Sequence record: KP869100
Length of the DNA stretch: 64,000 nt
Strand: one strand, 5' to 3'
Source: Escherichia typing phage 1
The translations under genes and the position numbers were made by a program. Under the pieces are notes generated by a model. The model worked only from the letters and a program-made list of their open reading frames with translations. It was not told the DNA's origin and did not search any database. Of the stretch, positions 10,198 through 15,340 are shown piece by piece (position 1 is the stretch's first letter; each line of letters begins with the position of its first letter).

Positions 10198-10273
10198 TGG
10201 AGAATCCGAAGGGACTCGAACCCTTATAAACCTGTTTTGCAGACAGGCACATAGCCGTTTCTGTCACGGATTC
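10198..10273 (-). tRNA. tRNA-Cys (anticodon GCA)
   Basis: minus-strand cloverleaf: 7-bp acceptor GAATCCG/CGGATTC, anticodon loop CUGCAAA, T-loop TTCGAGT, discriminator U, encoded CCA. Confidence 0.7.
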
Positions 10274-10277
10274 AAAT

Positions 10278-10370
10278 TGGAGGAAGATACCAGACTTGAA
10301 CTGGTACACCGATTTCTCAGCTACTGGCAGTTTAGCAAACTGCTCCCTTACCTTTTAGGGTTAATCTTCC
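10278..10370 (-). tRNA. tRNA-Ser (anticodon GCU), type II
   Basis: acceptor GGAAGAT/ATCTTCC, anticodon loop UUGCUAA, long variable arm, T-loop TTCAAGT, encoded CCA. Confidence 0.65.
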
Positions 10371-10372
10371 AT

Positions 10373-11107
10373 TTATTTCTGTAATGCGTTCTTCATTTCT
10401 GGTGTTGCAATAGTGTCAATTACACCAGTTTTACAAGCATCATCAAACCAGTCTGGTAAGATACCTGCTAAGAACCCATTGATATTCGTTTTAAGGTACT
10501 CTGCAATAAGAGCAGCTTCTTCTTCAATCATCTGCACAACTTCATCTGCATAAGCTGTAATTTTTGAAATACCTTCATTAATCTTACTAACAGCTTGCTC
10601 AGCTAAATCAGAAATAGTATCAAGACCTTTGTCAATAGCATCTTGTAAGTCACTTAACACACCATTAACACTATCTAGTGCACTGTTAATCGTATCAATA
10701 GCTTTTTGACCATACTCTGTAGCAACACCCATAATACCACTAAATGGTGTACAGCCAACTTGTTCACCTGCTGCACCCATAACATTAGAGTAACCTTTTG
10801 CTACCTGCATACGTGATGAAAACTCATCAATGGACTTTTGACCGTAATCTGTTAGTGTTTTGGTAGTTGATGTAGTGCTTGTCAGACTCGTGGTAAAGCT
10901 GTTAAGCAGAACTGTTGTAAGTCCAGCAGCAACAATCTTATCCTTTACTGTAGGGTCTGATACAGAACTAATAGAGCTTACAAGTGATGTAGAGGCAGCT
11001 ACGGTTCCACCGAGAACTGCTGCACCAGTAATAAGGGGGTTAGAAAACCCTTTACCGGTTTTTAAGAGATTGAAAATCTCCTTACCTTGTTCTGTCATCT
11101 CTTTCAT
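10373..11107 (-). CDS. hypothetical Ser/Thr-rich protein embedded in the tRNA array
   Basis: ORF 10373-11170 trimmed to the internal ATG at 11107 because the 5' part overlaps tRNA-Phe. Confidence 0.45.
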   Translation of the reverse strand: MKEMTEQGKEIFNLLKTGKGFSNPLITGAAVLGGTVAASTSLVSSISSVSDPTVKDKIVAAGLTTVLLNSFTTSLTSTTSTTKTLTDYGQKSIDEFSSRMQVAKGYSNVMGAAGEQVGCTPFSGIMGVATEYGQKAIDTINSALDSVNGVLSDLQDAIDKGLDTISDLAEQAVSKINEGISKITAYADEVVQMIEEEAALIAEYLKTNINGFLAGILPDWFDDACKTGVIDTIATPEMKNALQK

Positions 11108-11123
11108 TAAGCACCTTTGAAAT

Positions 11124-11200
11124 TGGTAGTCCAGTGGGATTTGAACCCTCTTCTCATGTTTTTCAGACACGCGCTTTAACCATATAAGCTACTTGGACTA
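11124..11200 (-). tRNA. tRNA-Phe (anticodon GAA)
   Basis: anticodon stem CGUGU/ACAUG, loop CUGAAAA, T-loop TTCAAAT, encoded CCA. Confidence 0.65.
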
Positions 11201-11205
11201 TAAAT

Positions 11206-11281
11206 TGGGGTGACCTACGGGATTTGAACCCGTATAGACCATGTTCACAGCATGGGTCATTACCATTTATGATAAGGCCAC
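11206..11281 (-). tRNA. tRNA-His (anticodon GUG)
   Basis: anticodon stem CCAUG/CAUGG, loop CUGUGAA, acceptor GTGGCCT/AGGTCAC, T-loop TTCAAAT. Confidence 0.65.
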
Positions 11282-11312
11282 ATTTAAGGACTCTCGTAAG
11301 AATCCTTAGAAG

Positions 11313-11388
11313 TGGCAGCGGCATAAGGATTTGAACCTTAATAGGACAGCTTCAGAGACTGCTGCATTGCCAGTTATGCTATACCGCT
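11313..11388 (-). tRNA. tRNA-Gln (anticodon CUG)
   Basis: acceptor AGCGGTA/TGCCGCT, anticodon loop CUCUGAA, T-arm TAAGG-TTCAAAT-CCTTA, discriminator G. Confidence 0.55.
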
Positions 11389-11393
11389 AAATT

Positions 11394-11465
11394 TGGTACT
11401 CCATATCGGATTCGAACCGATACATAACACAGATTTTAAGTCTGGCCTCTCTGCCAATTGGAGTA
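11394..11465 (-). tRNA. atypical short tRNA-like gene (anticodon-loop candidate UAA)
   Basis: T-arm ATCGG-TTCGAAT-CCGAT and 6-bp acceptor are clear; D-arm is compressed and the anticodon stem has only 4 bp (loop CUUAAAA). Confidence 0.4.
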
Positions 11466-11474
11466 ATGGAGCAT

Positions 11475-11549
11475 TGGCGGGGGATGTTGGAATTGAACCA
11501 ACTTCTTCGATTTCAAAGACCGAGGTTTTAACCTTGTAAACTAATCCCC
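11475..11549 (-). tRNA. tRNA-Gln (anticodon UUG)
   Basis: anticodon stem UCGGU/AUCGA, loop CUUUGAA, T-arm GTTGG-TTCAATT-CCAAC. Confidence 0.6.
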
Positions 11550-11558
11550 TTTAAATCT

Positions 11559-12116
11559 TTACTTTCTTAGTGGATGAATAAAGAATGCCAACATAACTCT
11601 TTCCCTTGAAAATGCTCTTTCTTCTGGGACAACACTTTTAAGTTTCCACCCAACATAAATTCTCCAGTAAAATTGTTTACCAAAGATTTTGATTGACGGC
11701 ACAAAAGCGAATAATCCCCAAGCATTACTGTTCCACATTAGGAGATAACCAGTCTGATTATCTTCAGGGTTAGAACTTACGTTGATATTACCTTTCCACT
11801 TAGTAACATCTTTTACATCTCTTCCTAATACATGGTAAGAGAAGTTATAAGCTTTGTTTCTCCAGAGCCATCCAACTCTCTGCATGTAGACACCAAGCTT
11901 ACCAATCTTTCTAATCTTAGCCCATCGTTTGATATGACCTGCATCACCATCAATTGGGTTGTCATAAGTCTCCATCCATCTGAACCCGAAAGGTAAGTGT
12001 CCTTTCTTCTCACTGTAGAATGGAACTACAAAAGGTGCTAAGATAACTGCTAAGATTGCTGCAAATGGCTCTAACAAAGCTAAGAAAATCCATGAAGCAT
12101 ACTTTAAGTATCTCAT
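11559..12116 (-). CDS. hypothetical membrane protein embedded in the tRNA array
   Basis: 185-aa ORF with hydrophobic N-terminus (IFLALLEPFAAILAVILAPFVV). Confidence 0.45.
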   Translation of the reverse strand: MRYLKYASWIFLALLEPFAAILAVILAPFVVPFYSEKKGHLPFGFRWMETYDNPIDGDAGHIKRWAKIRKIGKLGVYMQRVGWLWRNKAYNFSYHVLGRDVKDVTKWKGNINVSSNPEDNQTGYLLMWNSNAWGLFAFVPSIKIFGKQFYWRIYVGWKLKSVVPEERAFSRERVMLAFFIHPLRK

Positions 12117-14091: not shown

Positions 14092-14168
14092 TGGAGGTTC
14101 AGATGGGAATCGAACCCACATTCATAGGGCTTATGAGACCCTTGCATTACCTTATCTGCGACTGAACC
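14092..14168 (-). tRNA. tRNA-Met (anticodon CAU; elongator Met or Ile2)
   Basis: perfect acceptor GGTTCAG/CTGAACC, anticodon stem AGGGU/GCCCU, loop CUCAUAA. Confidence 0.6.
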
Positions 14169-14172
14169 ATAT

Positions 14173-14249
14173 TGGTAGAAGTGGAGGGATTCGAACCCAT
14201 CGCCTGTCAGATTAAAAGTCTGCCGCATCACCATTCTGCTACACTTCCA
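14173..14249 (-). tRNA. tRNA-Lys (anticodon UUU)
   Basis: anticodon loop CUUUUAA, T-loop TTCGAAT, discriminator A. Confidence 0.6.
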
Positions 14250-14439
14250 TTAAATTATCTTTGTAGATAAGCTACCCAGACTTGCTTAAGGTCTGTAGCG
14301 ATGTGCCTTTTTGGGTTTAAATCTAGAATTTACCCATTCACCCTTTGTGGTCGCATACTCACAAGTAAGCTTAATAACTTATCTACAAAGGTAATTACCA
14401 GACCGTTGTTTATCATCTTAAGTGCTACCATTACACCAA

Positions 14440-14476
14440 CTCGACATCTGCCGAGTGAAGGAATCGAACCTTCGCC
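14440..14476 (-). pseudogene. tRNA remnant (T-arm and 3' acceptor half only)
   Basis: GAAGG-TTCGATT-CCTTC T-arm and a possible anticodon hairpin, but no complementary 5' acceptor strand found. Confidence 0.25.
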
Positions 14477-14677
14477 TTTTCTTTACCGGAGAAATAGATT
14501 GTTTAAGTTTTGCTGTAAACGGTCTTCTGTAAATTTGTTGAGCCAGACCAAGTTTTAAATTTTCAAAATTAAATTGGCTTGAAATTTCATACATTCTTGC
14601 TGTATTTGGTCTTCTGCTCCCTTAAAGAATACTCGTAAGAACTCTTTAAGGGAGGGGCTAAATAGCCCTCTCAAAAT

Positions 14678-14754
14678 TGGCGGCTACGATGAGACTTGAA
14701 CTCACATCATCTCCCGTGACAGGGGAGTATTTTCTCCAGTTAAACTACATAGCC
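14678..14754 (-). tRNA. tRNA-Asp (anticodon GUC)
   Basis: perfect anticodon stem CUCCC/GGGAG, loop CUGUCAC, discriminator G, encoded CCA. Confidence 0.7.
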
Positions 14755-14759
14755 TTTAT

Positions 14760-14847
14760 TGGTGTGCCGTGTAGGAGTCGAACCTACAGAGTCTCAATGA
14801 CAAGGGATTTACAGTCCCCACCGCTACCATCTACGGGATAACGACAC
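14760..14847 (-). tRNA. tRNA-Tyr (anticodon GUA), type II
   Basis: acceptor GTGTCGT/ACGGCAC, anticodon loop CUGUAAA, long variable arm; 88 nt. Confidence 0.65.
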
Positions 14848-14856
14848 ATTTAAATT

Positions 14857-14933
14857 TGGCGGTTAGTCAGGGATTCGAACCCTGTGCCATTCGCTTAACA
14901 GGCGACCGCACATACCTTATGTGCTTCCTAACC
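14857..14933 (-). tRNA. tRNA-Asn (anticodon GUU)
   Basis: D-stem GCAC/GTGC, anticodon loop CUGUUAA, T-arm CAGGG-TTCGAAT-CCCTG. Confidence 0.6.
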
Positions 14934-15009
14934 TTAATACATTGCCAGACCGTGTTTTTTCTTTTATCCGCAAAAAGTATTTTGTTGCTGAATACGGTCT
15001 TCTGCAAAA

Positions 15010-15087
15010 TTGGAGGCGGGTGCAGGAGTCGAACCTGCCGATACCATGCTAATGAGACATGTGAGACGCCCTTTCTCTATACCCGCA
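15010..15087 (-). tRNA. tRNA with anticodon CAU (initiator Met or Ile2 candidate)
   Basis: anticodon stem CAUGU/GCAUG, loop CUCAUUA; position 1:72 is unpaired (U:C); T-arm GCAGG-TTCGACT-CCTGC. Confidence 0.5.
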
Positions 15088-15178
15088 ATTCTTAATGACC
15101 AGACCAAATCTCTTCTTTGTCCGATTTACCTTCAGATGAATAAGATTAAGTTTGCTGTAATTGGTCTTCTGTCAAAAC

Positions 15179-15256
15179 TGGCGTTCCAGAAGGGATTTGA
15201 ACCCTCAAATATCCACTTTGAAAGAGTGGTGACTTTACCATTTTGTCTACTGGAAC
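15179..15256 (-). tRNA. tRNA-Glu (anticodon UUC)
   Basis: perfect acceptor GTTCCAG/CTGGAAC, perfect anticodon stem CCACU/AGUGG, loop CUUUCAA, discriminator G. Confidence 0.7.
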
Positions 15257-15263
15257 ATTAATT

Positions 15264-15340
15264 TGGTCTCTGTTGGAGGACTTGAACCTCCGGCCTTACC
15301 GCCCCAAACGGAACGCTCTACCAAGCTGAGCTAAACAGAG
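15264..15340 (-). tRNA. tRNA-Pro (anticodon UGG)
   Basis: perfect acceptor CTCTGTT/AACAGAG, classic D-arm GCTC-AGCTTGGTA-GAGC, anticodon loop UUUGGGG. Confidence 0.7.

Follow-up and report, generated by a model that had tools for sequence, protein, structure and literature searches.

Candidate Y-like RNAs between the tRNA genes of a Felixounavirus, downstream of a Ro60-like DUF2828 gene

Introduction

The stretch of DNA examined here, 64,000 nucleotides (nt) of Escherichia typing phage 1 (sequence record KP869100) that we call the window, comes from a Felixounavirus (FelixO1-like phage) and contains a large array of transfer RNA (tRNA) genes together with an open reading frame (ORF 15506-16921) for a Ro60-like protein, which is the last gene ahead of the array and lies on the same strand as it. 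This arrangement raises the question of whether the array holds, besides tRNAs, RNA partners of that protein. Ro60 and Y-like RNAs are already known from mycobacteriophages (PMC4201824) and from the Thermus phage phiLo (PMC12135203), and the Y RNAs of known Ro60 genes are found at most 4 kb away, on the same strand (PMC4201824). The orthologue of the window protein in phage Bas63 (bas63_0130, 97% identity, at the equivalent position upstream of tRNA-Pro) is gp130, which has been described as structurally Ro60-like, encoded directly upstream of the tRNA genes and able to counter the Ppl defence (PhageMaP preprint, 10.1101/2024.10.10.617714). The authors of that study raised the possibility of Y RNAs among the tRNA genes and identified none (10.1101/2024.10.10.617714). 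Whereas they suspected the annotated tRNAs, the candidates that we report are unannotated units lying between them. Four such units are, in our judgement, probably a divergent class of Y RNAs, partners of the Ro60-like (DUF2828) protein, set in a known Felixounavirus tRNA array. This claim is based on comparative sequence evidence and on a predicted protein fold. The locus appears to hold a form of the Ro60/Y RNA system not described before, whose RNA component is conserved across a very large phage protein family. Little is understood of the role that Ro60 and Y RNAs play in phages and bacteria. For the protein studied here, a clean phenotype has been published, namely protection against Ppl in a genetically tractable phage, and concrete RNA candidates make it directly testable whether it works with RNAs and what these do.

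Four structured units with common ends lie between the tRNA genes

The wider gaps of the array, which measure 77-429 nt, are more than empty spacer. Among the elements that they hold are the four Y-like units (64-138 nt; Table 1), which lie 330-1100 nt downstream of the Ro60-like gene on its strand and are each bounded by CAGAAGACC and GGTCTGG. Their common fold consists, from the ends inwards, of 3-4 base pairs (bp) of outer helix, an internal loop with AGA on the 5' side and G on the 3' side, 7-8 bp of inner helix and a variable interior; the stem that pairs the two ends also forms in their minimum-energy folds. All four are present in every one of the 27 Felixounavirus loci examined, where the ends are invariant (AGAAGACC, CAGCAA five nt further, and GGTCTGG) and the interiors diverge strongly. 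Positions of the stem that our search did not demand are also paired, and covary: inner pair 6 in 57 of 59 non-redundant instances (A-U 20, G-C 34, C-G 1, G-U 2), and inner pair 7, always Watson-Crick, in 41 of 41 Felixounavirus variants (A-U 19, U-A 22). All 164 cells of the outer helix, taken at 4 bp, are paired, and three of its positions covary; with the partner strand slid, only 20-52% are paired.

Unit 4 has, in addition, a permuted tRNA-like domain. Its CAGCAA (14510-14515) is followed by a V hairpin (14478-14494), a T arm (GAAGGTTCGATTCCTTC, 14457-14473), a closed acceptor-like stem (14439-14456) and a D arm (GGTGTAATGGTAGCAC, 14422-14437). Among its 13 variants, a single one has a substitution in the otherwise invariant T arm, and the D arm hardly varies, whereas the intervening stem stays paired through changes of sequence (CTCGG/TCGAG, CACG/CGTG, CCCTTC/GAAGGG). 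Rfam gives a weak partial tRNA match at 14456-14506. We also considered a GGCGAAG sequence in the T stem as a possible YrlA motif and ruled it out, as it is unconserved among the variants.

Bas63 carries all four units, and its opposite-strand coding sequence (CDS) bas63_0137 overlaps unit 4. Small hypothetical CDSs are annotated across units 3 and 4 and their flanks in vB_EcoM_E9 and Bas63 (our loci L115, 11347-11659, and L118, 16749-17023), on the opposite strand in the latter. The small CDSs drawn over these two units are probably annotation artefacts, which bears on the interpretation of gene-knockout screens; more generally, small hypothetical CDSs annotated within tRNA arrays may be artefacts.

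The gene ahead of the array encodes a protein of predicted Ro60 architecture

The predicted fold of the 471-residue product of ORF 15506-16921 has the overall organisation of Ro60, namely a helical-repeat ring followed by a vWA domain. The MIDAS motif of the latter (DxSxS...T...D; D279, S281, S283, T349, D381) is invariant in 33 diverse homologues. Pfam recognises DUF2828 and DUF7788, and no TROVE domain, in this protein, and neither single-sequence nor profile searches against PDB chains retrieved Ro60, so that fold comparison alone made the link. Because the predicted fold agrees while these sequence and profile searches give no Ro60 match, we describe the protein as having a predicted Ro60 architecture without being a TROVE member at the sequence level. 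Our searches of the literature on DUF2828 returned plant and tardigrade papers only, for a family that has at least 2,500 members in public data. In the PhageMaP supplementary data, gene 130 has fitness values of about -2.9 to -3.7 when the host carries Ppl, against +0.6 to +1.1 in the remaining sheets examined (10.1101/2024.10.10.617714).

The same RNA accompanies DUF2828 genes in distant phages and genomes

The occurrence of similar RNAs near other DUF2828 genes was examined in 77 viral loci whose proteins are 30-48% identical to the window protein, with a descriptor consisting of a helix 5-mer, CAGCA within 2-6 nt, and the exact reverse complement of the 5-mer followed by NG within 320 nt. 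It gave 90 matches on the gene strand, in 50 loci, against 5 on the opposite strand and 0 in shuffled sequence. Moreover, 79 of 89 viral matches are at most 500 nt from the gene, where 11% of the sequence lies; these distant copies are mostly located 25-100 nt past the stop codon or up to 400 nt upstream of the start. Their helix varies widely in sequence from locus to locus and yet stays paired (GGATC/GATCC, GGTTC/GAACC, GGATA/TATCC, AGACG/CGTCT). Aligned on CAGCAA, they yield a consensus with a 7-bp helix that ends 3 nt before CAGCAA, an invariant G:C second pair and an unpaired G after the 3' strand. In 26 distant short forms, 99.5% of the cells are paired, both partners vary at five of the seven pairs, and covariation scores 0.626, compared with 0.13 after shuffling. 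An independent set of 80 loci from bacterial genomes and metagenome-assembled genomes (MAGs) of many phyla, with proteins of 33-42% identity, gave a comparable picture (83 gene-strand matches in 46 loci, 1 on the opposite strand), often with 2-4 tandem RNAs beside the gene. Two other descriptors had been discarded, the first one (7 perfect pairs, helix RGAYC) as too strict, with 5 matches against 3, and a generic one (7-bp helix plus CAGCA) as too loose, with 477 against 312.

MAFFT misregistered both the concatenated ends (alignment A2) and the mixed short forms (A3); pairs were therefore not read from those alignments but counted in Python, and a covariance model (R1, from alignment A4) was built from distant sequences only, namely 26, with no Felixounavirus sequence among them. 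Applied to the window, it recovers unit 1 (E 0.0016) and unit 2 (E 0.011) at full length, in register and on the correct strand. Rescanning 27 descriptor-negative viral loci, along with two already positive, added 7 matches, all on the gene strand and at most about 320 nt from the gene; 6 of them are in formerly negative loci, which brings the positive loci to 56 of 77. In 31 of these 56, the fetched flanks are free of tRNAs, so that it is the gene, rather than the tRNAs, that the RNA follows. tRNAs occur near DUF2828 genes in 31 of the 77 viral loci, and 188 of those 189 tRNAs are on the gene strand. When 12 distant loci were compared with Rfam at the gathering score, no family matched the RNAs, and we found no description of RNAs with this stem and CAGCAA in Rfam or in the searchable literature.

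The RNAs of the viral set have a bimodal length distribution, with peaks at about 50-64 nt and 207-275 nt, and it is common for a short form to be followed directly by a long one. Some mid-length RNAs (loci L096, L053 and L095) show clear T, acceptor-like and D modules. Further features of the distant RNAs are that the short forms of alignment A4 often repeat AGCAA two or three times in the loop, that long forms of about 235-257 nt (L046, 5471-5720, and about 12 similar loci) have the interior motifs ACCACCCC, UAGUAGAC and GCCGAAGAC in common, and that these same long forms have an ACGAA immediately ahead of the closing strand, reminiscent of the CGAA found in known Y RNAs. The copy of locus L104 is followed by a U run.

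Comparison with known systems and possible function of the units

The Ro60 (Rsr) systems with YrlA and YrlB (Chen et al. 2014, PMC4201824) resemble this locus in that their RNAs lie at most 4 kb from the gene, on the same strand, and have 5' and 3' ends that pair. In YrlA, the conserved T and D stem-loops are separated by one that is not conserved and preceded by a V stem-loop, and the ends of the RNA form a stem with each other (PMC4201824). One RNA per genome has V, T, acceptor-like and D modules in this permuted order, here unit 4, whereas units 1-3 are comparable to YrlB, a shorter partner RNA devoid of the tRNA-like domain. By contrast, the window protein belongs to DUF2828/DUF7788 and not to TROVE, with only 10-16% identity to Ro60 in structural alignments; the units have a G:C-anchored helix followed by CAGCAA instead of the YrlA motif GNCGAAN0-1G and match no Rfam model; and the RNAs are four in number and embedded in a tRNA array. 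The Ro60 of phiLo, with Yrl1 and Yrl2 (PMC12135203; PDB 9KOP, 9L5Y), differs likewise in being annotated as a TROVE protein, in having no tRNA array and in having its RNAs, found via the CGAA motif, upstream of the gene. Its binding to the RNAs and to host PNPase was shown by experiment, whereas the system of the window is known from sequence comparison and a predicted fold.

We envisage a polycistronic transcript from which the units would be freed as the neighbouring tRNAs are processed; because tRNAs flank units 1 and 2 within a few nt, RNase P and 3' processing would release these two. The Ro60-like protein would be bound through the invariant stem and CAGCAA, which constitute the best candidate protein-binding site by analogy with the conserved 5'-strand motif of Y RNAs. 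Binding of the units by the DUF2828 protein is, we think, rather probable. The variable interiors, including the tRNA-like domain of unit 4, would act as effector or tethering modules; by binding, the units would regulate the protein or connect it with further factors, for instance host exoribonucleases or enzymes that handle tRNAs. The tRNA cluster of phage T4 offers an analogy for the production of such RNAs: it contains the small, stable non-tRNA species 1 and 2 RNAs, which are co-transcribed with the tRNAs and released by tRNA processing. To our knowledge, these have neither a sequence or structural relation to the units nor a Ro60-like partner, and the analogy concerns RNA production only.

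Several observations weigh against an interpretation of the units as Y RNAs. Except for a weak partial tRNA match, no Rfam family is found for any of them at E values up to 5, the YrlA 5' motif is missing from their 5' strands, where the invariant CAGCAA stands instead, and only one unit in four has a tRNA-like domain. The pairing of the distant helices partly reflects how the instances were found, because five of the seven inner pairs were demanded by the descriptor. The E-values of model R1 in the window are modest, with a weak partial match for unit 4 and no report of unit 3, and its specificity is shown to be limited by a match that scores like the units (18329-18389, plus strand, E 0.0033) and that is probably a false positive, with two helix pairs broken and the invariant GG deleted. 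The motif was undetected in 21 of the 77 phage loci and in 34 of the 80 genome loci. Finally, gp130 alone, from a plasmid or inserted in T7, restores plaquing on Ppl (10.1101/2024.10.10.617714); because it suffices, the anti-Ppl activity does not need phage RNAs, and the role of the RNAs, if they are bound, would therefore be regulatory, conditional or unrelated to Ppl. In agreement with this, the PhageMaP 'gene 137', whose coordinates overlap unit 4, shows neutral fitness when the host carries Ppl (10.1101/2024.10.10.617714), although redundancy among the four units could account for it.

The array might also serve for codon supplementation only, with gap elements that are spacers, processing or termination hairpins or decayed tRNAs, functionless in themselves and unrelated to the upstream gene. 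It is indeed a known Felixounavirus feature with a good codon match, its unit 4 holds tRNA-derived arms, its other gaps have simple hairpins and a terminator-like site, and both its tRNAs and 'gene 137' are individually dispensable in Bas63. We find this quite unlikely, though, given that the same stem and CAGCAA adjoin DUF2828 genes on the gene strand in phages of only 33-48% protein identity, in 31 of 56 positive loci without any tRNA in the flanks, and that decaying pseudogenes would not show invariant, covarying ends around divergent interiors. Strict orientation relative to the DUF2828 gene (90 vs 5 and 83 vs 1 in the two sets) also speaks against selfish repeats, such as miniature inverted-repeat elements or homing-endonuclease targets spread in the tRNA spacers. 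Terminal inverted repeats of 7-11 nt round a variable interior, in four copies in one region, would suit such elements, and Felixounaviruses carry homing endonucleases, but CAGCAA is on one arm only, the changes are compensatory, the copies are not identical and they occupy the same positions genus-wide, all of which makes this origin highly improbable.

The proximity of the RNAs to the gene could instead mean that they are cis-acting elements of the DUF2828 messenger RNA (mRNA), that is, autoregulatory sites, stabilisers or terminators of its untranslated regions, and not free-standing RNAs. A protein-binding motif beside its own gene is classic autoregulation, most distant copies are close to the stop (25-100 nt) or to the start (at most 400 nt upstream), and the L104 copy is then followed by its U run. 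Yet the Felixounavirus copies sit between tRNAs, past two promoters after the gene, so that tRNA processing would cut them from the mRNA, and the tandem sets of 2-4, the long forms of 207-275 nt and the tRNA-like modules better fit stable non-coding RNAs; we regard the cis-acting role as unlikely. Somewhat less easily dismissed, as a minor possibility, is that the whole module counters host defences targeting tRNAs, with tRNAs that replace cleaved ones and a complex that surveys, clears or repairs damaged tRNAs. In Salmonella, rsr and yrlBA form part of an RNA repair operon whose regulation depends on damaged tRNAs (PMC7790460); the TROVE proteins of jumbo phages have been described by Iyer and colleagues as an RNA-repair platform with a tRNA-like partner (PMC7824862). 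The Bas63 orthologue is an experimentally shown anti-defence factor, Bas63 is annotated also with a polynucleotide kinase, and DUF2828 genes often have tRNAs nearby, nearly all on their strand, as noted above. On the other hand, the proposed substrate of Ppl, the known target, is DNA rather than tRNA, and most RNA-positive loci have no tRNA in the fetched flanks. This explanation also overlaps that of the units as Y RNAs, from which it differs only in the proposed purpose.

Starting again from the units as Y RNAs of the DUF2828 protein, a broader proposal, which we put forward tentatively and with more doubt than belief, would see the RNAs with the stem and CAGCAA as cognate ligands of a large unrecognised phage branch of DUF2828 proteins, forming a new Y RNA class with its own recognition code, in a complex that controls the anti-defence activity of the protein or links it to tRNA surveillance. 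If true, it would explain why the RNAs are built into the Felixounavirus tRNA operon, and the class would be present in very many phages. The motif in any case provides a simple annotation handle for candidate partner RNAs of this family, for which Rfam currently offers nothing.

The tRNA array and its relation to codon usage

ARAGORN, run on the whole window, finds 26 tRNA genes, which all lie on the minus strand within 10198-15340, and 0 outside these limits; 25 of them are supported by the Rfam tRNA model RF00005 at the gathering threshold, the only one not recovered being tRNA-Met (cat) 15011-15087 (Table 1). The bounds coincide with those of the original prediction, made by a model from the sequence, which had placed a large minus-strand array here. 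Its isotype list agrees with the ARAGORN calls, with three Leu-anticodon tRNAs (taa, caa and tag) in addition; these class-I-shaped tRNAs account for at least some of what it called atypical members. The spacing of 1-8 nt that it reported as frequent holds for 14 of the 25 tRNA-tRNA spacers (one more is 9 nt long), and its three embedded protein genes match the conserved phage families DUF7217, DUF7338 and phrog_14202 and are annotated as CDSs in relatives. Its description as a tRNA array with embedded genes stands and its idea of codon compensation is supported, although it overlooked the Y-RNA-like units and the adjacent Ro60-like gene. The array may also, as it suggested, give resistance to host anticodon nucleases or tRNA-depleting defences.

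The region is 94-98% identical to that of many phages of E. coli, Salmonella and Shigella, with 231 phage records covering at least 80% of it and phage vB_EcoM-Pr103Blw as the closest relative (98.2% identity). The arrays of Felix O1, wV8, Bas63/JohannRWettstein and Pr103Blw match the window in the content and order of their tRNAs and in the three embedded genes. Since the records of these relatives already annotate identical tRNAs in identical order, the array itself is known; it is ordinary and nothing new. In the public Felixounavirus annotations the tRNAs are no different from those of the window, and the gaps are left blank or have small hypothetical CDSs drawn over the RNA units.

Table 1. 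Features of the tRNA array and of the adjacent region in the window.
Feature	Position	Strand	Basis or detail
Y-like unit 1, tRNA-Glu/tRNA-Met gap	15097..15173	-	outer GAC/GUC, loop AGA/G, inner AGACCAA/UUGGUCU, CAGCAA
Y-like unit 2, tRNA-Met/tRNA-Asn gap	14943..15006	-	outer UGC/GCA, loop AGA/G, inner AGACCGU/ACGGUCU, CAGCAA
Y-like unit 3, tRNA-Asp/tRNA-Lys gap	14540..14619	-	outer GAGC/GCUC, loop AGA/G, inner AGACCAA/UUGGUCU, CAGCAA
Y-like unit 4, tRNA-Asp/tRNA-Lys gap, permuted tRNA-like domain	14395..14532	-	fold, variants
Ro60-like protein gene, 471 aa, Pfam DUF2828 + DUF7788, PHROG 850 'RNA-binding protein'	15506..16921	-	orthologue of Bas63 gp130
DUF5681 gene	17003..17374	-	Pfam; immediately upstream of Ro60-like gene
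tRNA-Pro (tgg)	15264..15340	-	ARAGORN + Rfam
tRNA-Glu (ttc)	15179..15256	-	ARAGORN + Rfam
tRNA-Met (cat)	15011..15087	-	ARAGORN only
tRNA-Asn (gtt)	14857..14933	-	ARAGORN + Rfam
tRNA-Tyr (gta), long variable arm	14760..14847	-	ARAGORN + Rfam
tRNA-Asp (gtc)	14678..14754	-	ARAGORN + Rfam
tRNA-Lys (ttt)	14173..14248	-	ARAGORN + Rfam
tRNA-Met/CAU (cat)	14092..14168	-	ARAGORN + Rfam
tRNA-Ile (gat)	14015..14090	-	ARAGORN + Rfam
tRNA-Arg (tct)	13692..13768	-	ARAGORN + Rfam
Non-canonical tRNA-Trp-like gene, 83 nt	13467..13549	-	sequence + compensatory changes in relatives
tRNA-Ser (tga)	13364..13453	-	ARAGORN + Rfam
tRNA-Leu (tag), class-I shaped	13033..13109	-	ARAGORN + Rfam
tRNA-Lys (ctt)	12950..13025	-	ARAGORN + Rfam
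tRNA-Ala (tgc)	12868..12943	-	ARAGORN + Rfam
tRNA-Gly (tcc)	12787..12861	-	ARAGORN + Rfam
tRNA-Thr (tgt)	12704..12779	-	ARAGORN + Rfam
tRNA-Val (tac)	12533..12607	-	ARAGORN + Rfam
tRNA-Leu (caa), class-I shaped	12454..12531	-	ARAGORN + Rfam
tRNA-Arg (acg)	12373..12448	-	ARAGORN + Rfam
Embedded protein gene, 80 aa, phrog_14202	12113..12355	-	PHROG; CDS in relatives
Embedded protein gene, 185 aa, DUF7338	11559..12116	-	Pfam; CDS in relatives
tRNA-Gln (ttg)	11475..11550	-	ARAGORN + Rfam
tRNA-Leu (taa), class-I shaped	11394..11472	-	ARAGORN + Rfam
tRNA-Gln (ctg)	11313..11388	-	ARAGORN + Rfam
tRNA-His (gtg)	11206..11281	-	ARAGORN + Rfam
tRNA-Phe (gaa)	11124..11199	-	ARAGORN + Rfam
Embedded protein gene, 244 aa, DUF7217	10373..11107	-	Pfam; CDS in relatives
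tRNA-Ser (gct)	10278..10370	-	ARAGORN + Rfam
tRNA-Cys (gca)	10198..10273	-	ARAGORN + Rfam
Sigma-70-like promoter, TTGACA-18-TAAAGT, upstream of Ro60-like gene	16961..16990	-	consensus match only
Sigma-70-like promoter, TTGACA-17-TAATAT, between Ro60-like gene and array	15459..15487	-	consensus; conserved in relatives
Sigma-70-like promoter, TTGACA-18-TAAAGT, extended -10 TG, just upstream of tRNA-Pro	15367..15396	-	consensus; conserved in relatives
Internal sigma-70-like promoter, TTGACA-17-TATAGT, 11/12 match	13971..13999	-	conserved in relatives
Terminator-like long hairpin then U run, past tRNA-Cys	10100..10160	-	fold -25.4 kcal/mol + sequence

The G+C content of the window is 38.7%. Codon usage was computed from 51 long ORFs and compared with E. 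coli reference frequencies. The codons with a cognate phage tRNA include those most over-used relative to E. coli (AGA 6.4-fold, AAG 3.2-fold, ACA 2.9-fold, UCA 2.6-fold, GUA 2.2-fold, CUA and CCA 2-fold), and the avoided G/C-ending codons lack one. The match between over-used codons and phage tRNAs supports codon supplementation, as the original prediction had proposed: the tRNAs would supplement the decoding of A/U-rich codons that are commoner in the phage than in its host. In Bas63, the PhageMaP data indicate that most tRNA genes are dispensable one by one (10.1101/2024.10.10.617714).

Unusual tRNAs

The set called by ARAGORN covers 19 amino acids, Trp being the only one absent from those 26 tRNAs. 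A non-canonical Trp-like gene (13467-13549) would complete the set of 20. It has an anticodon loop CUCCAAA, a conserved C31-A39 mismatch, G73 and a CCA end, with 7 extra nt separating the acceptor and D stems, and its anticodon arm is close to that of E. coli tRNA-Trp. It is supported by compensatory changes in relatives, where ACGG/CCGT of the anticodon stem becomes TAAG/CTTA, CTC/GAG of the D stem becomes CAC/GTG, and the T stem changes in the same manner. Neither ARAGORN, relaxed threshold included, nor the Rfam tRNA model called this gene; the Rfam scan returned a 23-bit tRNA-Sec match there. A promoter-like site precedes it, and certain relatives have a hypothetical CDS annotated across it. 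Phage tRNA arrays can thus conceal other RNA genes, including a probable tRNA-Trp missed by standard tools.

The three Leu-anticodon tRNAs are also atypical, with short variable regions (4-5 nt in the ARAGORN cloverleaf). When the class II architecture expected of Leu, Ser and Tyr tRNAs, a long variable arm, was looked for, the Ser and Tyr tRNAs had it and these three did not. They have in common A73, a 3-bp D stem and an 11-nt D loop.

Transcription signals and other elements of the array

The array appears to be transcribed from several sigma-70-like promoters (Table 1). Immediately upstream of the Ro60-like gene, the DUF5681 gene has as orthologue Bas63 gene 129, which shows negative fitness in every PhageMaP sheet examined, whereas gene 130 matters only on Ppl; its product could be a functional partner of the Ro60-like protein, or the gene could simply be an important one.

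Several other elements, all on the minus strand, occupy the remaining gaps. One of 88 nt between tRNA-Thr and tRNA-Val (12612-12699) is 96-99% conserved where relatives differ by 10-20% elsewhere, and adopts a stable branched hairpin fold (z -3.3). We considered it as a fifth Y-like unit, as it has GAAGACCG, and rejected it: it lacks CAGCAA and a matching closing strand, and its fold is different. Hairpins with the stem CUUUAAGR/YCUUAAAG form a small family (11283-11311, 13775-13812, 14620-14652 and about 13115-13190), with the loop UUCUUACGAG in three copies; they closely precede tRNA-His, tRNA-Arg(tct), unit 3 and tRNA-Leu(tag) and may serve as a signal for processing or protein binding. Within the array, a core of about 100 nt (13193-13300) is conserved and ends in a terminator-like hairpin, AAAGACCUAUUUAGGUCUUUUU. 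The array may comprise more than one transcription unit. ORFs 13121-13279 and 13198-13392 overlap this core, where relatives annotate a 64-aa CDS.

Downstream of the internal promoter, a segment of about 160 nt (13813-13970) is 90-99% conserved and predicted to be structured, with a 46-aa ORF on its opposite strand. The tmRNA-like Rfam matches at 13769-14073 are far under the gathering score and overlap tRNA-Ile, and were treated as noise. After unit 4 comes a hairpin-rich segment of about 149 nt with a long, nearly perfect stem (14249-14394); BLAST found it in only 3 of the 9 relatives checked, and it is thus a variable insert of the array. Some relatives (loci L001, 5670-5747; L020, 8807-8887; L022, 8836-8916) carry an extra hairpin RNA of 78-81 nt, with compensatory differences, between tRNA-Lys(ttt) and tRNA-Met, at a place where the window has just 4 nt (14169-14172).

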